A stretch of DNA of 64,000 bases from Candidatus Omnitrophota bacterium (GCA_028699255.1 JAQVUX010000002.1:173875-237874); one strand, 5' to 3'; shown: positions 9,695 through 61,573, counted from the first letter of the stretch. The notes: generated by a model not told the origin, from the sequence alone. Translations and numbers: made by a program.

Positions 9695-10555
9695 ATGGCG
9701 GCAATATTATTAGAGGGTAAGCCGATAGCCGAAAGGTTGGGGGCTAAAATAAAATCCGAAGTCGAGGTTTTGAAGGCAGAGCGGGGGATGGCGCCGAAGC
9801 TTTTGGCGCTCCAGATAGGCGTAAATGCTTCGTCTGCCGTATATGCGAAGGCGCAAAAGAAAGCGGCCGAATCGCTGGGCATAGACTACGAGCTTAGGAC
9901 GGTTGCCGATTTGACGAGCCAGGCGGAGGCGGAAAAATTGATAAAAGATTTAAATAAAGATCCGGGTATTGCCGCCGTCATACTTCAACTCCCGGTGCCG
10001 AAAGGTATCGACGCCAAGCGTCTGGTGAACCTGATATCGCCCGGGAAAGATGCCGAAGGCATGCATCCGCAGAACCTCGGCAGGATATTGCTGGGGCAGT
10101 ACAATATCGGGCCGTGCGCGGCGATGGCGGTCATGGAGCTTTTAGGTTCGATAAAAGCGGATCTCTATGGCAAAGAAGCGGTTATCGTCGGGCATTCCGA
10201 GATAGTCGGTAAGCCCCTGGCGATGATGTTATTGAGTAAGTTCGCGACGACCACGGTATGCCACATAGCTACGAGCAAGCGCGGGGTACTGCCGGAGCAC
10301 ATAAGGCGCGCCGAGATATTGGTGGTCGCGGTCGGGAAGGCGGGAGTAGTCAGGGGCGAATGGATAAAACCCGGAGCGATAGTGATAGACGTCGGCATAA
10401 ATCGAGCGGGCGATAAGATACTCGGCGATGTCGAGTTTGACAGCGCCGCGGATAAAGCCGCGTATATTACGCCGGTTCCCGGGGGGGTAGGGCCGTTGAC
10501 CACCACGATACTCATGCGAAATACCGTAGAATTATTTAAGGGGCAGGTTAAATGA
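9695..10555 (+). CDS. folD: bifunctional methylene-THF dehydrogenase / methenyl-THF cyclohydrolase
   Basis: 286 aa; ILLEGKPIAERL... and GHSEIVGKP / PVPGGVGP motifs. Confidence 0.9.
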   Translation: MAAILLEGKPIAERLGAKIKSEVEVLKAERGMAPKLLALQIGVNASSAVYAKAQKKAAESLGIDYELRTVADLTSQAEAEKLIKDLNKDPGIAAVILQLPVPKGIDAKRLVNLISPGKDAEGMHPQNLGRILLGQYNIGPCAAMAVMELLGSIKADLYGKEAVIVGHSEIVGKPLAMMLLSKFATTTVCHIATSKRGVLPEHIRRAEILVVAVGKAGVVRGEWIKPGAIVIDVGINRAGDKILGDVEFDSAADKAAYITPVPGGVGPLTTTILMRNTVELFKGQVK

Positions 10556-13647: not shown

Positions 13648-13739
13648 AGCGAGATAACCTCGTAGATTGGTCATCTATTTTTCATGAGATAACCTCCGAG
13701 GTCGATGGGCTGATATACATTGGTTCTTAATCTAAATTT

Positions 13740-13900
13740 TTCGTCCTGGAAGGAAGACCCTTTCAGGATTCATGCCTCGCGTGGACGCGAAAATTTTGAC
13801 CATGCAAAATTTTCGCTCGAGAAAAATTGCTCGGACGTTGCCTCGCAATTTTTACGCCCCGCTCGGCACGAATCCCTGCGGGTCTTCCTCCGACAGGAAG
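13740..13900. repeat. structured palindromic repeat, copy A (~160 nt). The same family occurs in inverted orientation at 60826-60990.
   Basis: Terminal IR GGAAGACCC (13753) / GGGTCTTCC (13879); internal hairpin GCGAAAATTTT-gaccatgc-AAAATTTTCGC (13785-13814). About 85-90% identity to the reverse complement of 60826-60990 by manual alignment. Confidence 0.75.
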
Positions 13901-53352: not shown

Positions 53353-54386
53353 TAAAGCGTAAGAAGACCAGGCAGGTTATTGTCGGAGGCGTTAAGATAG
53401 GCGGCGGCGCGCCGGTGTCGATACAATCGATGGCCAAGGTCGCCACTTCCGACGTGCGTCGCGTGGTATCTCAGATAAAAGAGCTCGAGCGCGCCGGCTG
53501 TGAGATCATAAGGATTGCCGTAAAGGATATGGACGACGCCCGCGCGGTAAGAAAGATAAAAGAGAAGATACATATACCGCTCGTCTGCGACATCCATTTC
53601 AACTACCGCCTGGCGCTCGAGGCGATAAAAAACGGTGCGGATAAAATACGTTTGAATCCCGGGAATATAAGAAAGCGCGGTGAGATAGCTCAGGTCGTAA
53701 TGGCCGCGAAGGGGGCGGGGATACCGATCAGGATAGGGGTAAACTCCGGTTCGGTGGTTAAAGGGCGCGGGACAGTGACGAGTTCCCTCGTAAAATCCGC
53801 GCTCGACTACGTGAAATTATTTGAGCAAATGGACTTTCGTGATATAATCATATCACTGAAGGCCTCGGATGTGGCCACGACCGTAGCCGCTTACAGGGAA
53901 ATATCGCAGAGATGCGATTACCCTCTGCATTTGGGGGTTACCGCTTCCGGTTCGCATGATCAGGGTATCGTAAAGTCTGCGATAGGCATAGGCGCGCTTC
54001 TTCTCGACGGCATAGGCGATACAATACGGGTTTCATTGACGGCCGATCCGGTCGAAGAAGTTTTAGCCGCCAAACGCATATTAAGTTCCGTAGGTATGCG
54101 GCGCGACGGCGCGGAAGTTATAGCGTGCCCGACGTGCGGACGGTGCCAGGTGGACTTAGGCGCGATAGTCGGACAACTTGAGAAGAAGGTTCTGGAGCAA
54201 GCCGCAGGATACGGAAATATCAGGATAGCCGTGATGGGCTGTGAAGTGAATGGGCCCGGCGAGGCACGCGAGGCGGATATAGGCATCGCGTTCGGCAAAG
54301 ACTCGGGAATGTTATTTAAAAAAGGTAAGATGATTAAAAAAGTAAAAGCAAAAGACGCGATTAAAGAATTATTGAGACAAATATGA
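53349..54386 (+). CDS. ispG: 4-hydroxy-3-methylbut-2-enyl diphosphate synthase
   Basis: 345 aa; GcpE signature and the C-terminal CPTCGRC 4Fe-4S motif. Confidence 0.9.
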   Translation: MIKRKKTRQVIVGGVKIGGGAPVSIQSMAKVATSDVRRVVSQIKELERAGCEIIRIAVKDMDDARAVRKIKEKIHIPLVCDIHFNYRLALEAIKNGADKIRLNPGNIRKRGEIAQVVMAAKGAGIPIRIGVNSGSVVKGRGTVTSSLVKSALDYVKLFEQMDFRDIIISLKASDVATTVAAYREISQRCDYPLHLGVTASGSHDQGIVKSAIGIGALLLDGIGDTIRVSLTADPVEEVLAAKRILSSVGMRRDGAEVIACPTCGRCQVDLGAIVGQLEKKVLEQAAGYGNIRIAVMGCEVNGPGEAREADIGIAFGKDSGMLFKKGKMIKKVKAKDAIKELLRQI

Positions 54387-56104
54387 AATGGACCGAAGCG
54401 TTAATCCCGACACTTAAAGAAGATCCGCAGGACGCGGAAGTTATAAGCCATAAGCTTATGATACGCGGAGGGTTTATCCGCAAACTCAGCGCCGGCGCGT
54501 ATTCGTATCTTCCGCTTGGCGTGAAGACTCTCCATAAGATCGAGGCGATAATAAGAGAAGAGCTGGATAGTGTTGGTTGTCAGGAGGTGCTCCTGCCGGC
54601 CATCCATCCGCCTGAAATATGGAAGAAGACCGGCCGTTACGATGTGCTGGGGCCGGTGCTTATAAAATTCAAAGACCGCCACGGCAAGGAGTGCGTTCTC
54701 GGGCCGACCCACGAGGAGATAATAACAGACCTTGTAGCCAATAATCTCAAATCATATAAAGAACTTCCGTTCACACTCTATCAGATACAGACGAAGTTTC
54801 GCGATGAGCCCAGGCCGCGCTTCGGCATTATGCGCACCTCCGAGTTTATAATGAAGGACGCCTATAGCTTTGATTGCGATAGCGATGGGCTCGAGAAGAG
54901 TTACAGGAAGATGTACGATGCCTACTGCCGGATATTCGAGCGTTGCGGATTGCCGTATGTGGCGGTAGAGGCCGACCCCGGCATAATGGGCGGCAACGAT
55001 TCGAATGAATTCATGGTGCCGACCCCGGCGGGTGAGGACAGGATCGTCGTTTGCACTAAATGCAAATACTCCGCGAGCACAGAAGTTGCCAAGTGCGAAG
55101 GGGGTCCGGCGTTCGGTAAGGCCCAGGCGGCTAAAGAGAAGAAACTGCCGATAGCCGAAGTGGAGACGCCGGGGATAACGACGATCGAGGGGGTTTCCGA
55201 ACTTTTAAAGACAGAGCCGACGCGGTTGGTCAAGACGCTGATATATAAATGCGACGACAAAATAGTTGCGGTTCTTTTGCGCGGTGATTTCGAGGCCAAC
55301 GAAGCGAAGATAAAAAATTACCTGAAATGCGTCTCGCTTGAACTCGCCGATGCCAAAACGATAGAAGATGTAACGCTCGCGCCCGTCGGGTTTTCCGGCC
55401 CGGTGAAATTGCGCCTCGCGCGCATAATTGCCGATAACAGCGTCAAGGGCATGGTTAATTCTATTACCGGCGCCAATAAGAAGGACGCGCATCTTATAAA
55501 CGTAAACATAGACCGTGATTTTGAGACGAAAGAGTTTGCAGATTTACGGATGATAACGGCTGTAGACGGATGTCCGGCGTGCGGCAAGCCGATAGAGATA
55601 AAGCAGGCTATAGAGATAGGCCACACGTTCAAGCTCGGCACTAAATATTCGGAAGCGCTCCAGGCGAAGTTCCTCGATAAGGACGGTAAAGAGAATATCG
55701 CCATAATGGGCTGTTACGGCATAGGTGTGAACAGGATAATGGCCAGTCTTATTGAAACCTCGAACGATAAGGACGGGATAATATGGCCGGAGTCCATCGC
55801 TCCGTACAAAATTATAATTCTCGCGCTGAATATGGAAGATAAAAAGGTGAAAGAGCTGGCGGATGAATCCTATAAGGCGCTTATAAAATCAGGATTTGAT
55901 GTTTTATACGATGATAGGAATGAATCCGCTGGAGTAAAATTCAAAGACGCTGATCTCATAGGCATACCGATAAAGGTAATAATCGGATCGAAAAACGCCA
56001 AAAATAATATAGTTGAAGTCAAATCCCGCAAGACTGGCAAGATAGATCAGATCCCGCAGAAGGATCTCGTAGCTTTCCTCAAAACCTCTGAATCAACCGC
56101 GTAG
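54383..56104 (+). CDS. proS: proline--tRNA ligase (bacterial type with editing domain)
   Basis: 573 aa with class II aaRS motifs and an INS editing insertion; the stop codon is embedded in the palindrome at 56091-56123. Confidence 0.9.
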   Translation: MKWTEALIPTLKEDPQDAEVISHKLMIRGGFIRKLSAGAYSYLPLGVKTLHKIEAIIREELDSVGCQEVLLPAIHPPEIWKKTGRYDVLGPVLIKFKDRHGKECVLGPTHEEIITDLVANNLKSYKELPFTLYQIQTKFRDEPRPRFGIMRTSEFIMKDAYSFDCDSDGLEKSYRKMYDAYCRIFERCGLPYVAVEADPGIMGGNDSNEFMVPTPAGEDRIVVCTKCKYSASTEVAKCEGGPAFGKAQAAKEKKLPIAEVETPGITTIEGVSELLKTEPTRLVKTLIYKCDDKIVAVLLRGDFEANEAKIKNYLKCVSLELADAKTIEDVTLAPVGFSGPVKLRLARIIADNSVKGMVNSITGANKKDAHLINVNIDRDFETKEFADLRMITAVDGCPACGKPIEIKQAIEIGHTFKLGTKYSEALQAKFLDKDGKENIAIMGCYGIGVNRIMASLIETSNDKDGIIWPESIAPYKIIILALNMEDKKVKELADESYKALIKSGFDVLYDDRNESAGVKFKDADLIGIPIKVIIGSKNAKNNIVEVKSRKTGKIDQIPQKDLVAFLKTSESTA

Positions 56105-56123
56105 GTAACCTACGCGGTTGATT
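56091..56123. repeat. 16-bp perfect inverted repeat AATCAACCGCGTAGGT-a-ACCTACGCGGTTGATT overlapping the proS stop; shares the AACCGCGTAGGT core with the palindrome at 32-87
   Basis: Read directly from the sequence; may act as a terminator/stabiliser hairpin and/or a repeated extragenic palindrome. Confidence 0.6.
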
Positions 56124-56242
56124 GCGCGGTCGAACCTCCGGGTTAAATTAAGGTATAAAAAAGTTATATTTTCCGCTTTGATTTCTTTGGAATATATGTT
56201 ATCGTTTTAACAATATTAAGCGATAAAAAATCCGGAGAATTA

Positions 56243-59200
56243 ATGCATAATATTGGTATTAAGATTATATCGGCAGTTCTTGCCATAGCCTGCCTTCTGA
56301 CGTTTTCCGATGTAGCGCTGTGCTATGATTTTATTCCGGTTAAGGCGCATGATACGTTGGCGCTTGACTCGCAAATTCGCACCGCTGAGTTTTCAGCAAT
56401 ATTCAGTGAATTATACATAGGCCATGCCATTGCCGATGCCTGTAGATTGAACATAACAAGCGAAAACGGCGTAAAAGATCTTATAACTGCTCACCGCTCC
56501 CGCCTTGTCGGCCCAGCCGTTTCTAACCGTATCGGCTCCTTCGACCTTAAAAATCTCCAGGTTCGCCGTGAAGGCGATTCGTACTATTTGACCTACACAA
56601 ACGCATTAGACGGAAATAGAATATCCTGCCGTTATTTCGTACTACCTTCCAACGATTCCGCTTCTAACGCTATCCGCATATGCGACTTCGAATCCTCCTG
56701 CGTGAAGCGGACGGTGTGGATGGAGGTCGCTGGCGCTACTTCGGTCCCGGTAAAAGCAGGGCCTCTCGCCGCGGCTGAGTCGTCCGTTATGGACGCGAAG
56801 ACGCTTAAAGGCGCCGGAGTGATGTTAAAAGATGAAGCGCCGAAACCTAAACCCGCAGGTGCTCGATTGCTGGAATTTGCGAAAAAGCTTGAATCAATAC
56901 ATGCGGAAGTTAAAAAAAGAAGGCGTTTGCGCAAAGGTGAGCATTTCTGGTTAATTAGGGCGCCAAAAATATTGCGCCGGGCCAAACTTATACTTGATAA
57001 AGACGGCCCGGAAGAGGCGTTTGCGCAATTAGTGTATATGTGGAAAGGTTTGAACTCCTTCGCTGAAAAATATAAGGAATATGGACGGTTAACCGGTATC
57101 GAGTTTAATCCGAATGAATATGAAGAGTTTCTTGTGTGGTGGGCAAAAGAGATATACCCGACGAAGCCGGGACTTGCGCTTGCCGTGCATCTACAGCTTG
57201 CAAAATTTTCGCTCGATGCTATACCGCTTGTTCTTTCAATATCAGGTCGGGATAGTGAAATGGATATCGGGATGTGCGCTCTTATAGATAAATATAAAGT
57301 ATTGCTGGAAGAATTTTACGAAGATTCCCTCAGCTTGTCGGAAAGCATAAATGATTCTACCGGTGCGCCGAACCGAATAGCGGATTGGCGCCTTTATCTT
57401 TTAGCAATTCACAAGATCGATAAGATCATTTATAACCTGGGTGAGGTACGGCAAAATATTTTAGATACACCGGAAATACCCAAAAAAGTATCGCAATATT
57501 TTTTGAATGATGACAGCCCTCTATACCGGGCGCAACAACACCTGGTTCATGTTCAACACTATGCCAAAATGCTACAAGCGTCTTCCGGAGAAAATGGCCC
57601 ACAGCCCGACCAGACACGAACGCAGGAGGGTGAGCCGCCGCTACTCGGAGGCGGAACAGGGATTTATGTTATCGAACAGTCGATAGTAAAGGATGCACCT
57701 GAGGTTACGGCAACATTAATACGCGGGAATATCGTGGGCGGGACGATGACGAAGGATGAGGCGGTGCGCCTGCTCGTGAAGATGGCTATTACGGGAAACA
57801 AAGACAAGTGCGCCCGGATAGTTGCAGGTCTTAGTGAATTGGGATACGATATTGTATTCGCATACGAGGAAGCACTTGAGATAGCCATATTATGGCTGGA
57901 TTTTGGAACCGCGGTTGATAAGATGATAAGCTATCTTCGCTTTTACGTAAAAGAAGATGTCCATCCGGAACTTGATAAGCACCGAATGCAGTTGGCGGCG
58001 GGATTTTATGAAGTGCTTGACTTATTTGCCGGACAAAGCAAGGGTGGTATCGGGGAATTTGCGAATTTTTACAAAGTGGCTTCCCCGATACGGGATAGAT
58101 GGATGGCCTATCATAAAACGATCGTTGATTTAGCAGGCTTGCAACTAAGATCTGAAGAAAATGCGAGTCGTTTCCACGACCACTGTTATGAGATCGCCGG
58201 CGCTATATTATCGCCGGATGAAGTGCGTGGAACGTTGGATAGTGTTTTGCAAGACGCCGAATCCCTGATGTCGGTGTATGCCCCGATAATTAGCAACGCA
58301 ATATTAAACGATCATGTTATTCCAGAGGACGGGATAGGAGAAATAAGCGCTTTTATCTGTGATGCGCAAGATTTGATTTACACGACGCGGCAGAGGATCT
58401 CGGTAAGTCTGGCAGGATGCGGCGATTTGGTTATGGATATCGCTGACATGATCTCCGGGTTAAACAATATATATGCGGACAGCATGAATTATTATTTAAA
58501 AAAAATGGGAACGGAGTATCTGGCTTCCCTTGAGGCGGTCCAAAGAAGCGTGATTAAAGAAAAGCTCGTGCGTCTGGGTATTGCCGATATTCCTGGAGAG
58601 CAAGATAATCGCGCCCCCGGTAACGGGCAAACGCCTATCCACCCGCAGACGAAGCGTCCGCCATTCGGGCCGTATCATCATACGCCGGACCCGGGCGACG
58701 ACGATCCTTCGGTCGAAAACCCGTTACCGATTCCGAAACCTGCCGCAAGCTATGCCGGAATAAATGAGGCGCGCGAGGCCACGGCGGCACGGAGATTTGC
58801 CGAAAGTTATCTTGATGGCAGGCAGGTGCCTGTAGATTTTCCGCTAACAGATGATATCGTATCGCCAGGCCTTGGTGAGAGAGTGAAAAAAATAAGAAAA
58901 GCGTTTGGCGTATCGAAAATAGATTTTGCAGTAATGTTTGGTGTAACGCAAGGAGCAATAGATAGATGGGGGAAAGGCGGTACGCTTCCCAAATCATATA
59001 ATATGATAGCCGCCTTTGCTGAAAAATATGGGATACCGATGAAGTATCTTCTTAAAGGTGAGGGCGAAGAAGAGGCATTGGAGTCGGCTAATAAGCATAA
59101 AGAAGAGTTTCGCCGCGGGGTACTACCGCAAGCACCTGCAAAAAAGCTACCGCGGGTTGACATGGCAAAACAGGAAAAGGCGGCGCAACGCTTTGCGGCT

Positions 59201-60751
59201 ATTAGAGCGAACGAAGCGGCAGTCTTCGCGATTTTGAGCGAGGTGCCGGTAGATGTTATGGAGTGGGCGTTACCGCGGGCTAATATAGTCTCGTGCGCGT
59301 TTGCCAGGCGGTATAAAGAAAATGATAGATTGGTATATTGGTCGTATGCAATAGAAGGTTTTGCGCGAGCGTATCGTGCTTATGTCCTTAAAGGATGCGA
59401 TGGTGGGAAACTGGATCCCCGTAGCGCGCGTTTTAAGAAAATAGCCGATGCCGCGATGAGAAACGCTATTGCTGATTCTGCAAGATGTAAGACTGGTCGA
59501 GGCCGATTCTTGAAGAGCGGAGTCTTTCTGTTTTCAGAAGCGTTTACCGGCAAGGATGCTTATGATGATAAAAGTTTTCGATCGGAAAATATCCTGGGCA
59601 AATCGGAATTGCCCGCGGATAAGTTTGATGAATCCGGCGTGCCTGAAGAGATACTCAGCATGCTACGCCGGGATGGTTTACCGGCGCTTATCCAGTCCGT
59701 TGATACGCTTACGTCGGGTGAGAGATTTGTCCTGGCAAGATTTATTAAAAACGATGAAGCAACATTAGAAAAAATTGCGCGGGAGATGAAGTGTGGCAAA
59801 TCGTCAGTATTCAGAATATATAAAAGCGCTATCAATAAAATACAGGATTATGTTATGAAGAAGAACGCGCAAGCGCACTCAAAGATTGCCGCGCAACGCA
59901 AGGCTGTGGCGGAAGGCGTGGGCAAAGGCGACGCCGCCCCTCGACAGGCTCGGGACGGCGTCCTGAGTACGACAAAGAACGCCGTGGCGGCAATCCCGCC
60001 AAGCGGAATCAGCGAAGCTGAGGGGAAGGATGAAAAAGGGGTAGGGGGGAGAGAAAAGGGGGCAACTGTGGAAATAAAAGAGCGGGTTCTTTCCGATGAG
60101 CGGAACGCAACGAATGACGAAAGACGAAAGACGAACGACGAAATCACGATCGCCGTAGCCGATCTAATCGATACCGTCAAGGTCAGCGCTTACGGTATGA
60201 AGATGGGGGGGAGGGTGCAGAATGAGTGCCAGAATATAATGATCGCGCTGGAAGTCCCGGATGACGCGAAAGAGAACCCGATGCTCTTCGGTTCAGCCTT
60301 GCGGCAGGTTACGGACCGGCTAGAGCGGCAAGGCATCTTAGGCAACGGCAAGACCGTCAAAGTTAAGGTTGTCTGGGCGAAGTCGAGCGAATTATGTTCT
60401 ACCATTTTAAGTGAGAATTCCGATTTTGGCGCTCCGGTATCAAATATAGTCGTATTGGGCAAGGAAGCGACATTCAACGGAGAAGAGTTTGCGCCTCTTA
60501 AAGGCAAGGCATTCTTTGCCTGCATCGATTTCACGGGCCGGCCGGATTATGCCAGAATATTGACGCTTGCGATGAAGCTTGCCTTCAACCTCGATTCTAC
60601 TGGTAATCCTATCGTAAACTATGGCGATATCGAGATCCTCTGGATAGCTGATAAGGTCGCGAGATTACTGCCGAAGTCAGGAGCGATAGAGACAGGCAAG
60701 AAGGACGATCGGTTTAGGTTAGAGGTGCGCGAGCTCAAGCGTCAGGCGTAA
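56243..60751 (+). CDS. large orphan protein (1502 aa) with an N-terminal signal-peptide/anchor-like segment, an XRE-type HTH (about aa 877-940) and a sigma-70 region-4-like HTH (about aa 1156-1205)
   Basis: A single uninterrupted ORF with a GGAGA RBS 5 nt upstream of the ATG and AT-rich upstream DNA. HTH_XRE-like: SKIDFAVMFGVTQGAIDRWGKGGTLPKSYNMIAAFAEKYGIPMKYLLKGEG. Region-4-like: LTSGERFVLARFIKNDEATLEKIAREMKCGKSSVFRIYKSAINKI. No enzymatic motifs recognised. Confidence 0.6.
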   Translation: MHNIGIKIISAVLAIACLLTFSDVALCYDFIPVKAHDTLALDSQIRTAEFSAIFSELYIGHAIADACRLNITSENGVKDLITAHRSRLVGPAVSNRIGSFDLKNLQVRREGDSYYLTYTNALDGNRISCRYFVLPSNDSASNAIRICDFESSCVKRTVWMEVAGATSVPVKAGPLAAAESSVMDAKTLKGAGVMLKDEAPKPKPAGARLLEFAKKLESIHAEVKKRRRLRKGEHFWLIRAPKILRRAKLILDKDGPEEAFAQLVYMWKGLNSFAEKYKEYGRLTGIEFNPNEYEEFLVWWAKEIYPTKPGLALAVHLQLAKFSLDAIPLVLSISGRDSEMDIGMCALIDKYKVLLEEFYEDSLSLSESINDSTGAPNRIADWRLYLLAIHKIDKIIYNLGEVRQNILDTPEIPKKVSQYFLNDDSPLYRAQQHLVHVQHYAKMLQASSGENGPQPDQTRTQEGEPPLLGGGTGIYVIEQSIVKDAPEVTATLIRGNIVGGTMTKDEAVRLLVKMAITGNKDKCARIVAGLSELGYDIVFAYEEALEIAILWLDFGTAVDKMISYLRFYVKEDVHPELDKHRMQLAAGFYEVLDLFAGQSKGGIGEFANFYKVASPIRDRWMAYHKTIVDLAGLQLRSEENASRFHDHCYEIAGAILSPDEVRGTLDSVLQDAESLMSVYAPIISNAILNDHVIPEDGIGEISAFICDAQDLIYTTRQRISVSLAGCGDLVMDIADMISGLNNIYADSMNYYLKKMGTEYLASLEAVQRSVIKEKLVRLGIADIPGEQDNRAPGNGQTPIHPQTKRPPFGPYHHTPDPGDDDPSVENPLPIPKPAASYAGINEAREATAARRFAESYLDGRQVPVDFPLTDDIVSPGLGERVKKIRKAFGVSKIDFAVMFGVTQGAIDRWGKGGTLPKSYNMIAAFAEKYGIPMKYLLKGEGEEEALESANKHKEEFRRGVLPQAPAKKLPRVDMAKQEKAAQRFAAIRANEAAVFAILSEVPVDVMEWALPRANIVSCAFARRYKENDRLVYWSYAIEGFARAYRAYVLKGCDGGKLDPRSARFKKIADAAMRNAIADSARCKTGRGRFLKSGVFLFSEAFTGKDAYDDKSFRSENILGKSELPADKFDESGVPEEILSMLRRDGLPALIQSVDTLTSGERFVLARFIKNDEATLEKIAREMKCGKSSVFRIYKSAINKIQDYVMKKNAQAHSKIAAQRKAVAEGVGKGDAAPRQARDGVLSTTKNAVAAIPPSGISEAEGKDEKGVGGREKGATVEIKERVLSDERNATNDERRKTNDEITIAVADLIDTVKVSAYGMKMGGRVQNECQNIMIALEVPDDAKENPMLFGSALRQVTDRLERQGILGNGKTVKVKVVWAKSSELCSTILSENSDFGAPVSNIVVLGKEATFNGEEFAPLKGKAFFACIDFTGRPDYARILTLAMKLAFNLDSTGNPIVNYGDIEILWIADKVARLLPKSGAIETGKKDDRFRLEVRELKRQA

Positions 60752-60825
60752 TTCCACCCCCTGGGGTGAAAACAGTAGAAATTTATCATATATTTTACCT
60801 GCTGAGTGAGGAAGTTTTTCATTTT

Positions 60826-60990
60826 CCTCATGAGGAAGGCCCGCAGGGATTCGTGCCGAGCGGGGCGTAAAAGTTCGAGCAGATGCGAGAACTTTTCTCG
60901 CAGTGAAATTTTACATGGCTAAAATTTCGCGTCCCGTGAGGCACAATCCCGAAAGGGCCTTCCTCTCGGGCATGAAAAATTTCCGAACGA
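60826..60990. repeat. structured palindromic repeat, copy B (inverted relative to copy A at 13740-13900)
   Basis: Terminal IR GAGGAAGGCCC (60833) / GGGCCTTCCTC (60957); the reverse complement aligns with 13740-13900 at about 85-90% identity, including the GCGAAA(A)TTTT...AAAATTT(T)CGC internal hairpin. Confidence 0.75.
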
Positions 60991-60998
60991 AAATTCCC

Positions 60999-61027
60999 TT
61001 GACATAGCGGCCTTAGTATAGTATAAA
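60999..61027 (+). promoter_or_regulatory. near-consensus sigma-70 promoter TTGACA-17 nt-TATAAA upstream of rimP-nusA-infB
   Basis: TTGACA at 60999-61004, a 17-nt spacer, and TATAAA at 61022-61027. Confidence 0.55.
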
Positions 61028-61055
61028 TATTTATACTTTCTTTTAAGGAGGGAAA

Positions 61056-61086
61056 GTGGGTTTATTGAATTGAACCCGCTTTTTTT
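61056..61086 (+). terminator. intrinsic terminator/attenuator hairpin in the rimP leader (GUGGGUU-uauugaauug-AACCCGC followed by U7)
   Basis: A 7-bp GC-rich stem (one G-U pair) followed by TTTTTTT, ~30 nt downstream of the predicted -10 and 35 nt upstream of the rimP ATG. Confidence 0.5.
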
Positions 61087-61120: not shown

Positions 61121-61573
61121 ATGGAAATAGTCGATCGCGTTAACTCATTGATTAAAGGTTATTTAGAAGAAAACGGCATCGAACTTGTCGAGACGACATA
61201 TCGTCGCGAGCAAGGCGGGATGGTTTTACGCCTATTAGTCGATACGCCGGAGGGCATAACGATAGACGAATGCGAGCGGTTAAATAACTATTTAAGCGAA
61301 CTTATTGATAAAGAAGGAGTAATCGACGAACATTTTCTCCTGGAGGTCGCTTCTCCCGGACTCGACAGGGCGCTCGTTACCGATAGGGATTTTGCGTGGG
61401 TTATGGGCAAGGCGCTTGAGGTAAGCATGTATGAACCGGTGGATGGCAAGAGGGAGCACGAGGGTAAGCTTATGGGCATGGACAAGGATAGTATTGTTGT
61501 AGAAAATGACGGAATTAGCGTAGTGATTCCGAGAGCTAAGATAGCTAAAGCGAAACTGAAGATAGATTTTTAG
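61121..61573 (+). CDS. rimP: ribosome maturation factor RimP
   Basis: 150 aa; LEVASPGLDRAL motif; located upstream of nusA. Confidence 0.85.
   Translation: MEIVDRVNSLIKGYLEENGIELVETTYRREQGGMVLRLLVDTPEGITIDECERLNNYLSELIDKEGVIDEHFLLEVASPGLDRALVTDRDFAWVMGKALEVSMYEPVDGKREHEGKLMGMDKDSIVVENDGISVVIPRAKIAKAKLKIDF

Follow-up and report, generated by a model that had tools for sequence, protein, structure and literature searches.

Gene X between proS and rimP

A 64,000-nucleotide stretch of a Candidatus Omnitrophota genome (GCA_028699255.1, JAQVUX010000002.1:173875-237874), here called the window, carries the gene order uppS-cdsA-dxr-rseP-ispG-proS-X-rimP-nusA, in which X, the subject of this report, is an open reading frame (ORF) of 1502 codons lying between proS (54383-56104) and rimP (61121-61573). 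At NCBI its sole annotation is 'helix-turn-helix domain-containing protein'. A preliminary description, made by inspection of the window, had singled X out as an orphan with a secretion-type N-terminus and two different helix-turn-helix (HTH) modules. It omitted the most striking fact, the hypervariability of X at the level of whole modules between two strains whose eight flanking proteins are 95.7-99.6% identical. The chain runs from a leader through an N-domain, a helical M module, an XRE HTH and a region with a sigma-4-type HTH to a C-terminal alpha/beta domain; its predicted parts, numbered in nucleotides (nt) of the window and amino acids (aa) of the product, are as follows.

56148-56242, plus strand: upstream region of X; AT-rich, contains GGAG, conserved with the second strain
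56243-60751, plus strand: gene X, a 1502-aa ORF; NCBI MDD3905449.1, Candidatus Omnitrophota
56243-56323, plus strand, aa 1-27: signal-peptide-like leader with n/h/c layout and A-x-C at -3/-1
56324-56842, plus strand, aa 28-200: N-terminal alpha+beta orphan domain; low-confidence model with 3 helices and a 5-strand sheet
56843-57601, plus strand, aa 201-453: helical domain; only outside relative P0087 aa 767-969, 26% identity
57602-57646, plus strand, aa 454-468: linker 1, Gln/Pro/Gly-rich, duplicated in the longer allele
57647-58627, plus strand, aa 469-795: M module, acidic and all-helical
58628-58852, plus strand, aa 796-870: linker 2, Pro-rich (RPPFGPYHHTPDPGDDDPSVENPLPIPKP...), two copies in the longer allele
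58853-59092, plus strand, aa 871-950: XRE/Cro-C1 HTH with N-cap VDFxLxxxxVSPGxGER and tail IPxxYLLKGE
59216-59869, plus strand, aa 992-1209: basic sigma-70-like region; sub-threshold sigma matches, low confidence in the AlphaFold2 (AF2) model
59888-60127, plus strand, aa 1216-1295: linker 3, low-complexity and charged
60128-60748, plus strand, aa 1296-1502: C-terminal alpha/beta orphan domain with beta-alpha-beta alternation

The reading frame (56243-60751, plus strand) is free of stops over all 1502 codons, a run that would be expected by chance with p ~1e-31 at 3 stop codons in 64. A ribosome-binding site (RBS), GGAG, lies at 56234-56237 with the ATG 5 nt further downstream, so that the uninterrupted 4.5-kb ORF and good RBS of the preliminary description both stand. 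The upstream region presumably holds the gene's own promoter; a promoter scan around X gave matches no higher than shuffled expectation. X is also present on a Logan contig from sample SRR22315503, and a second full-length version, P0002 (2166 aa), occupies the same position between proS and rimP at locus L001 in sample SRR8925730. Two independent samples each contain an intact ORF, of 4.5 and 6.5 kb respectively, and all conserved segments have a ratio of nonsynonymous to synonymous divergence (dN/dS) below 1; on these grounds X is a genuine protein-coding gene. The same facts rule out a frameshift-generated fusion of several genes, an artefact that the preliminary description had considered.

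Full-length relatives of X are very few. A word-index search with the whole protein against 5.8 billion clusters and an exhaustive HMMER search with aa 1-1200 against 1.84 billion cluster representatives each returned the same one, P0002, which is the single full-length relative besides X itself among ~15 billion proteins. The remaining HMMER matches cover the XRE domain alone, except for P0087 and the marginal P0038. Residues 1201-1502 lay outside the HMMER search, and a word-index query with the C-terminal 287 aa (aa 1216-1502) gave zero matches, X itself included, and is therefore uninformative; a word-index search with an XRE-subfamily profile recovered generic small XRE proteins only and missed the giant proteins discussed below. 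At full length, then, the designation of X as a near-orphan is sound. It does not extend to the leader, the XRE subtype and the helical part of the N-domain, nor to a domain confined to the longer allele, all of which recur, the leader in similar form, in mosaic proteins of 2.3-4 thousand amino acids (kaa).

Replacement, gain and loss of modules between strains

The second strain is represented by locus L001, and its X allele is the longer P0002. Flanking DNA is 96.4-96.9% identical between the window and this locus. Within X and on its 3' side, similarity to L001 is distributed in blocks.

56148-57674: 92.8% nucleotide identity
57785-58650 (M core): no detectable nucleotide similarity
58660-59995: 91.9% nucleotide identity; similarity resumes at linker 2 and ends inside linker 3
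59996-60944, plus strand: 3' replacement tract without similarity, comprising the C-terminal domain, the stop codon and the first two thirds of the downstream repeat

Synonymous divergence (dS) and dN/dS in the same comparison divide the genes and modules further.

Eight flanking genes: dS 0.07-0.14; dN/dS 0.01-0.11 in seven, 0.29 in ispG
Most conserved segments of X (aa 1-500 and 951-1215): dS 0.11-0.15; dN/dS 0.27-0.70
XRE domain, head of linker 3 and linker 2: dS 0.20-0.35; dN/dS 0.20-0.52
M module and C-terminal domain: dS saturated; dN/dS not meaningful

In most conserved segments of X, dS is at the level of the flanks, and it is somewhat higher in the XRE domain and linker 2. Saturation of dS is the reason to regard the M core and the C-terminal domain as replaced, not point-diverged. 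The M module of X is 35% identical to each of the two M copies of L001 (27-36% among M modules overall), and the C-terminal domain is 31-34% identical to its L001 counterpart. The two alleles also differ in composition: X has the architecture N - L1 - M - L2 - XRE - sigma - C, and P0002 the architecture N - L1 - M1 - L2 - extra domain - L1' - M2 - L2' - XRE - sigma - C, its additional M copy and inserted domain being bounded by duplicated Pro/Gly-rich linkers. Breakpoints between the blocks of 92-93% identity and the dissimilar blocks map to the repeated linkers, replacement of modules has left the reading frame intact, and the start codon, RBS and upstream region are conserved. Modules of X have been replaced, gained and lost at linkers between strains, and the conserved modules evolve fast at the protein level, with dN/dS of 0.30 over aa 1-200 and 0.70 in the helical domain (aa 201-453). 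Allelic exchange between strains by homologous recombination would be the most economical explanation, because the 3' tract extends beyond the stop codon into the spacer. No silent cassette copies of X modules were found elsewhere in the window or in L001.

The gene itself is a lineage-specific insertion on the proS side of the rimP promoter. A RimP scan of GTDB species genomes yielded six Omnitrophota-type loci, in four of which (L006, L007, L009 and L010) proS adjoins the rimP promoter and leader with spacers of ~140-690 nt; the conclusion follows from the empty slot in these four related Omnitrophota metagenome-assembled genomes, and agrees with the suspicion of an inserted module voiced in the preliminary description. 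In Firmicutes the proS-rimP slot holds polC. The preliminary description had compared X with that arrangement; its gene order (uppS-cdsA-dxr-rseP-proS-X-rimP-nusA) was found as described, while the polC analogy is not applicable to an Omnitrophota host whose relatives leave the slot empty. A PolC remnant is likewise rejected, with no PHP, exonuclease or polymerase domain of X in Pfam or NCBIfam. The suggested comparison of base composition is consistent with insertion: G+C content at third codon positions (GC3) is 0.45-0.49 in X as against 0.58-0.62 in most flanking genes (0.10-0.14 lower), and the C-terminal cassette, at 0.60 (on aa 1251-1502), differs from the rest of X. A search of X against a plasmid collection gave no match, and comparisons with phage (PHROG) and defense families gave HTH-level matches or none; a plasmid, phage or defense-system origin was rejected on these results.

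Several small elements lie around the insertion, one of them with a second copy elsewhere in the window.

56095-56119, no strand: palindrome, perfect 12+12, overlapping the proS stop codon; absent in L001
60786-60990, plus strand: structured repeat copy B, resembling a miniature inverted-repeat transposable element (MITE); a neighbor of X, not part of it
13734-13890, minus strand: structured repeat copy A, 82% identical to copy B over 159 nt
60999-61086, plus strand: rimP promoter (TTGACA-17-TATAAA) and leader hairpin with T-run; right edge of the X slot

The MITE-like repeat would fold as a single long hairpin (-96 kcal/mol for 190 nt), and an Rfam scan of the window found no family, for the repeat or otherwise. 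L001 keeps just the 3' third of the repeat and has other small elements in place of the palindrome and the repeat. The palindrome and copy B thus exist where they had been reported to bracket the gene, and they are not the borders of an insert, being missing or different in L001. The rimP promoter and T-run hairpin (61049-61086) are conserved in L001, L006, L007, L009 and L010, with RimP 65-77% identical; the hairpin is probably an attenuator of the rimP-nusA-infB operon. Small hairpin elements seem to accumulate in the spacers on either side of X. One hairpin, CACCCC(CT)GGGGTG, directly follows the X stop codon (60752-60775) and has a near-identical copy upstream of X in L001 (~9880-9900). 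At the position of the proS palindrome L001 has a different structured element, next to a CACCCC(CT)GGGGTG-like hairpin. The proS-rimP spacer of L009 contains, as judged by eye, a similar MITE-like element in reverse orientation.

Modules, leader and mosaic relatives

The XRE/Cro-C1 HTH, at aa 877-950, is a solid assignment as a predicted DNA-binding type, backed by profiles and by a structure model. Pfam scores on the region (aa 878-942) fall below the family cut-offs (HTH_19 23.7 bits against 30.2; HTH_3 20.3 against 23), PHROG transcriptional-regulator families match at up to 3.6e-11, the best PDB sequence match is the P22 c2 repressor, and the exhaustive search gave >100 XRE matches on aa 874-950. 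In the AF2 model, block-mean confidence (predicted local distance difference test, pLDDT) is ~80-90 across most of the domain, and the predicted structure has the five-helix lambda-repressor-like fold with the HTH at helices 2-3. Foldseek places this model on P22 c2 with a template modeling (TM) score of 0.81, a root-mean-square deviation (rmsd) of 1.9 A and 30% identity; the top PDB matches are P22 c2, 434 Cro, SinR and DdrO, with TM scores of 0.7-0.8 and rmsd of ~2 A. The position given to this module in the preliminary description (nt ~58871-59060) was right. Like the XRE repressors (P22 c2; PDB 3jxb, 1adr), aa 877-950 combine the five-helix fold with a G-x-S/T...W..G...P pattern. The module differs from P22 c2 in its position within a 1502-aa chain, ~850 residues after a signal-like leader, and from P22 c2-type XRE domains in general in its subtype N-cap, VSPGxGER, and its sub-cut-off Pfam scores. 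PADLOC returned weak RmrA and HTH_VI matches confined to the XRE HTH and nothing relevant elsewhere in X. An internal start producing a cytoplasmic XRE-sigma isoform was considered and is unsupported: just upstream of the XRE domain there is no in-frame ATG, GTG or TTG with a Shine-Dalgarno-like sequence.

For the sigma-70-like region the signals are fainter. Pfam Sigma70_r4 matches aa 1155-1201 at E 0.0014-0.011 (15.7-18.5 bits against a cut-off of 24.1), NCBIfam TIGR02937, the sigma70-ECF (extracytoplasmic function) model, spans aa 1037-1203 at E 2e-4 (21 bits against 42.9), PHROG sigma families match at 5e-4 to 3e-3, and a PDB search with X alone found FliA region 4 at E 0.31; Pfam Sigma70_r2 does not match X itself, and pLDDT in the region is 52-67. 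A region-4-type HTH at aa 1155-1205 is nonetheless probable, because several weak matches coincide at one place: all those of region-4 type converge on aa 1148-1209. The region-4-like HTH of the preliminary description (nt ~59708-59860) was correctly placed. A region-2-like part at aa ~1037-1100 is tentative. A profile of five sigma sequences, three giants included, matches FliA from region 2 to region 4 at E 8e-9, from which a full sigma module in X might be claimed. That claim was rejected: a profile built from the three giants' sigma modules only does not detect X, so that the strong FliA signal belongs to the giants, as the PDB search with X alone also indicates. In comparison with two-domain sigma-70 factors of ECF or sigma-28-like type, X has the pattern L..ER.V...........IA......S..V......A..K and its weak match to the sigma70-ECF model is colinear over aa 1037-1203. 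It departs from the family in that every score is under the family cut-off. The related giants have clear modules matching FliA regions 2-4. Pro-sigma-K and pro-sigma-E are membrane-associated precursors with a short adjacent pro-sequence; the sigma-like module of X, unlike theirs, is found in the final third of the protein, well separated from the hydrophobic N-terminus.

The ~1200 aa outside the two HTH modules match no Pfam family even at E 10 and nothing relevant in NCBIfam, PHROGs or PADLOC. AF2 runs on aa 863-1502 and aa 28-862 gave a mean pLDDT of 49 and 51 from alignments of 4-6 rows, and their outlines are usable as secondary structure only: three helices and a five-stranded sheet at aa 45-165, a helical bundle at aa 205-450, very long helices in the M module and alternating beta-alpha units in the C-terminal domain. 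Foldseek searches of PDB with the N and M parts returned designed helical repeats at rmsd >20 A as top matches, which are meaningless. The structural check proposed in the preliminary description is thus answered for the XRE region, which is modeled as an HTH, and the models elsewhere are of low confidence.

At the N-terminus the leader reads MHNIGIK / IISAVLAIACLLTF / SDVALC followed by Y, with an h-region of 14 aa, one Lys ahead of it, two acidic residues (D/D) behind it, A at -3 and C at -1. By heuristic criteria this is a Sec pattern of the kind cut by signal peptidase I (SPase I), which comprises a charged n-region, an h-region of 7-15 aa and small residues at -3/-1, and its style matches other predicted signal or lipoprotein leaders among the ORFs of the window. 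The strongest hydrophobic segment of X is aa 8-26 (Kyte-Doolittle 2.31; all others <=1.45), and hydropathy gives no further transmembrane (TM) candidate. We infer from the sequence that the leader is a cleavable Sec signal peptide; so read, and with no further TM segment, it would place the whole chain outside the producer's cytoplasm, in the periplasm, on the surface or secreted. The odd topology remarked on in the preliminary description is borne out to the extent of a single N-terminal hydrophobic segment with an N-in/C-out charge bias and no later TM segment.

Similar leaders occur in the large proteins P0008, P0031 and P0006, ending in AFA, AFA and AHG before G, A and L, respectively (...AILAVAFLFNDIAFA before GDF, ...FLFNDVAFA before ADY and ...CLFLFNDVAHG before LSP). 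The resemblance spans the leader of X and the next ~30 residues; in an hhalign comparison, aa 3-58 of X pair with aa 12-59 of P0008/P0031 over 48 columns at 42% identity and E 2.3e-4, with a probability of just 44%. A metagenome scan with the P0008/P0031 N-terminus recovered no proteins beyond those two.

Among the 1.84 billion cluster representatives, the best single-domain matches of the XRE module were P0005 (208 aa, free-standing), then P0008 (2993 aa), P0024 (3451 aa) and P0031 (3343 aa). P0031 is NCBI MFA6321532.1 from Candidatus Omnitrophota, and the other mosaics are metagenome sequences without taxon annotation. X is 32-42% identical to these four over aa 835-950, and all five have the N-cap VDFxL....VSPGxGER and the tail IP.EY.LKGE. 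The helical N-domain of X (aa 246-466) has a counterpart of 26% identity in P0087 (4001 aa), which by eye also carries the extra insert domain of P0002. P0006 (2332 aa, from ENA metagenome contigs) has a signal-like leader, a sigma module at aa 363-545, 19 tandem XRE units and a C-terminal domain. Such an array of DNA-binding domains behind an export-type leader is very unusual. Most of the mosaics with leader and XRE module also have a clear sigma module; the order of modules differs, the sigma-like part following the XRE in X and preceding it in the giants.

Three of the giants share a chromosomal slot of their own, a second hypervariable site with the same pattern as the slot of X. P0008 (L002 10001-18982) and P0031 (L004 362-10393) stand in place of X in the order alr-X-ilvD, and P0024 (L014 3568-13923) is directly upstream of ilvD; IlvD is 90-92% identical among the three loci. 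Their giant proteins have in common only ~280 N-terminal residues (54%), the region-4-plus-XRE part (36-38%) or a 240-aa C-terminus (51%), and among the modules that vary behind leaders of this type are methyltransferase, GNAT, PRK-type kinase and AAA domains. P0024, from SRR8925730, the same sample as P0002, is without a leader; immediately upstream of it lie genes for an IS3 transposase and AbiEii. We infer that X is one of a loosely related group of large mosaic Omnitrophota proteins with similar leaders and a common XRE subtype. A C-terminal domain common to the whole mosaic set was rejected by hhalign.

Some further observations concern these relatives and their surroundings. P0001, P0002, P0006, P0008, P0024, P0031 and P0087 all end in Ala after a terminal amphipathic helix (...RQA, ...SMA, ...KYA, ...RAA, ...EFA, ...ISA and ...TKA, respectively), the one feature that X has in common with the giants at this end, their C-terminal domains not all being detectably homologous. 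P0005, at L012 10001-10627 (GCA_041643055.1), joins sigma region 4 to the XRE subtype, is the nearest single-domain match to X (44% identity) and lies beside a DUF4160/DUF2442 gene pair. Its N-terminus, IPPKPSEKD, resembles what is left of a linker, and P0005 may be the surviving piece of a larger mosaic gene. Finally, a 1952-aa ORF cut by the locus end (L002 1-1937), ~8 kb upstream of P0008, has CsrA-like and response-regulator receiver matches and is one more odd multi-domain giant of these genomes.

Known systems and competing readings

Large ORFs that are poorly conserved and mostly signal- or TM-bearing have been described from Omnitrophota, which are proposed to be predators or parasites (PMC10066038; bioRxiv 10.1101/2023.11.21.568195; 10.64898/2026.06.07.730766). 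X is part of this known, unexplained class. It shares with the giants the phylum, a signal- or TM-type N-terminus, few domains, poor conservation, the mixing of unrelated modules and a proposed role in interaction with host or prey. 'Giant' is defined there as >20 kb (Seymour et al. 2023, PMC10066038) or at least 10 kaa (10.64898/2026.06.07.730766); at 4.5 kb and 1502 aa X is under both limits, its relatives have 2.2-4 kaa, and it is without a TM array or adhesin, dockerin or peptidase domains. Searches of the accessible text of the two giant-gene preprints (10.1101/2023.11.21.568195; 10.64898/2026.06.07.730766) found no mention of HTH or sigma modules and no description of strain-level cassette exchange between near-identical strains. 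Relative to that text, two features are new: an export-type leader followed by DNA-binding and sigma-type modules, and cassette exchange that is documented between strains.

The internal effector array of MARTX toxins varies between strains by recombination (PMC6315884, PMC5555677), and X resembles them as a long, putatively secreted chain with constant ends and unrelated internal modules whose composition is strain-variable by recombination (PMC6315884, PMC4453568, PMC5555677). MARTX modules are cytoplasm-type enzymes working in another cell; no module of X is a known effector. Unlike MARTX and other RTX proteins, X has no RTX or glycine-rich repeats and no cysteine protease domain (Pfam, NCBIfam), its neighbors are housekeeping genes, no type I secretion system (T1SS) genes lie near it and no C-terminal T1SS signal is detectable, the leader being of Sec type instead. 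Polymorphic toxins (Rhs and the contact-dependent inhibition proteins CDI/CdiA) have a constant N-terminus, a replaceable C-terminal cassette and strong strain-to-strain variation. X is like them in its replaceable C-terminal cassette and in replacement tracts that reach past the stop codon, and unlike them in lacking Rhs/YD or filamentous hemagglutinin repeats and any recognizable toxin domain, with rimP, not an immunity gene, downstream. By these features X is a member of neither the MARTX nor the polymorphic toxin families. ComEA is an exported DNA receptor with its DNA-binding module outside the cytoplasm behind an N-terminal signal or anchor, and such receptors are a precedent for a module of the kind X has in that position; ComEA differs in being a small helix-hairpin-helix protein of the competence machinery with no homology to X.

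It is plausible, if short of an even chance, that X is a Sec-exported, cassette-shuffled interaction protein with a logic akin to that of MARTX or polymorphic toxins. Its leader would route the chain out of the producer's cytoplasm through Sec, and the protein would serve contact with other cells or with their nucleic acids. In that case the targets of the XRE and sigma-type modules would be the DNA or RNA polymerase of a host or prey cell, or extracellular DNA, and not the producer's own chromosome, and X would be a modular, recombination-shuffled effector or surface protein under diversifying pressure. Strain-level diversification and an extracytoplasmic chain together would point to a role at the interface with other cells, and the reading fits the proposed predatory or parasitic lifestyle and the signal- or TM-bearing large ORFs of Omnitrophota. 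A bolder form is quite unlikely: that there is an undescribed class of Sec-exported, recombination-shuffled Omnitrophota mosaics, with a constant leader and XRE (often also sigma-type) module, delivered to or into host or prey cells or onto extracellular DNA, where the module would bind DNA or hijack RNA polymerase as a bacterial 'exported sigma/repressor' effector, with X as a compact member in a strain-variable hot spot.

A number of points weigh against export and interaction. Export is predicted from sequence heuristics, and the sigma assignment for X itself is weak, given that the giants-only profile fails to find it. The AF2 models, unreliable outside the XRE, give no fold evidence for any function of X. 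Neither a secretion system nor an immunity gene, toxin domain or adhesin domain accompanies X, and rimP is next downstream. HTH and sigma modules are typical cytoplasmic domains, as are the domains of the giants that use S-adenosylmethionine (SAM), ATP or acetyl-CoA. A C-terminal domain common to X and the giants receives an hhalign probability of 0.1%, and the linker motif shows no significant sharing with the giants outside the two X alleles. Elevated dN/dS below 1 is compatible with relaxed constraint as well.

The cytoplasmic character of these modules favors the main rival reading, which we judge rather unlikely, in which X is a membrane-tethered or cytoplasmic transcription regulator. 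The N-terminal segment would be an uncleaved anchor or no targeting signal at all, the XRE and sigma-4 modules would act on the cell's own DNA and RNA polymerase, and the orphan domains would be sensory or scaffolding, with possible control by tethering or proteolytic release. XRE and sigma-type HTHs are classic cytoplasmic binders of DNA and RNA polymerase, region 4 plus XRE exists without a leader in the free-standing P0005, domains of related giants depend on cytoplasmic cofactors, and one preprint (10.64898/2026.06.07.730766) reads many long Omnitrophota proteins as membrane-anchored with the bulk cytoplasmic. The details of the N-terminus point the other way: a K before and D/D after a short 14-aa h-region, and A-x-C/A/G at its end, favor N-in/C-out insertion and cleavage, with no second TM segment to return the HTH modules inside and no Shine-Dalgarno-preceded in-frame start just upstream of the XRE to support a separate cytoplasmic isoform. 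Nor would a housekeeping regulator be expected to swap domains between strains ~97% identical in flank nucleotides, or to be absent from sister genomes; the nearby rseP is conserved synteny, found also in genomes without X. Combinable with either topology, and distinctly improbable, is a polyprotein cut at the Pro/Gly-rich linkers, for example to free an XRE-sigma regulator. The long, repeated, proline-rich linkers are better conserved than the modules they separate, MARTX is a precedent for autoprocessed modular toxins (PMC6315884), and West-Roberts et al. (bioRxiv 10.1101/2023.11.21.568195) suggest that peptidase domains might cleave giants. In X, no protease domain was found (Pfam, NCBIfam), the linker motif is not significantly shared with other giants, and a role as recombination joints explains linker conservation equally well.

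That X is a functionless passenger is very improbable, whether as an insertion, decaying or selfish, whose frame has stayed open by chance or as several genes fused by mis-assembly. Its absence from sister genomes, elevated dN/dS, GC3 under that of most flanking genes, small mobile repeats in both spacers and the IS3 element adjoining P0024 would all suit such a passenger; the stop-free frames of 4.5 and 6.5 kb, from independent samples and assemblies, dN/dS clearly below 1 in all conserved segments, a conserved start codon, RBS and upstream region and the preservation of frame in replaced modules would not. Effectively refuted is the idea of a diverged member of a known large family, be it a PolC remnant, a known adhesin or an anti-phage defense protein. 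The polC-bearing slot of Firmicutes speaks for it, as do the weak RmrA and HTH_VI matches in PADLOC, which are limited to the XRE HTH; Pfam, NCBIfam and PHROGs yielded no polymerase, PHP, exonuclease or adhesin match, the plasmid collection yielded none, and related Omnitrophota have no gene between proS and rimP.

Omnitrophota and other ultra-small symbionts are characterized by large ORFs that resist annotation, and the X locus is a compact, tractable case of 4.5 kb with a clear anatomy and one confidently folded domain, the XRE. It also provides a natural experiment in the form of two strains with near-identical flanks and swapped X modules. Should export prove false, X would be an unusual membrane-tethered regulator; under either topology, the exchange of cassettes at linkers illustrates the assembly and diversification of these mosaic proteins. 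If export is true, DNA-binding and sigma-type modules outside the producer's cytoplasm would represent a new effector principle for bacterial predators or parasites.

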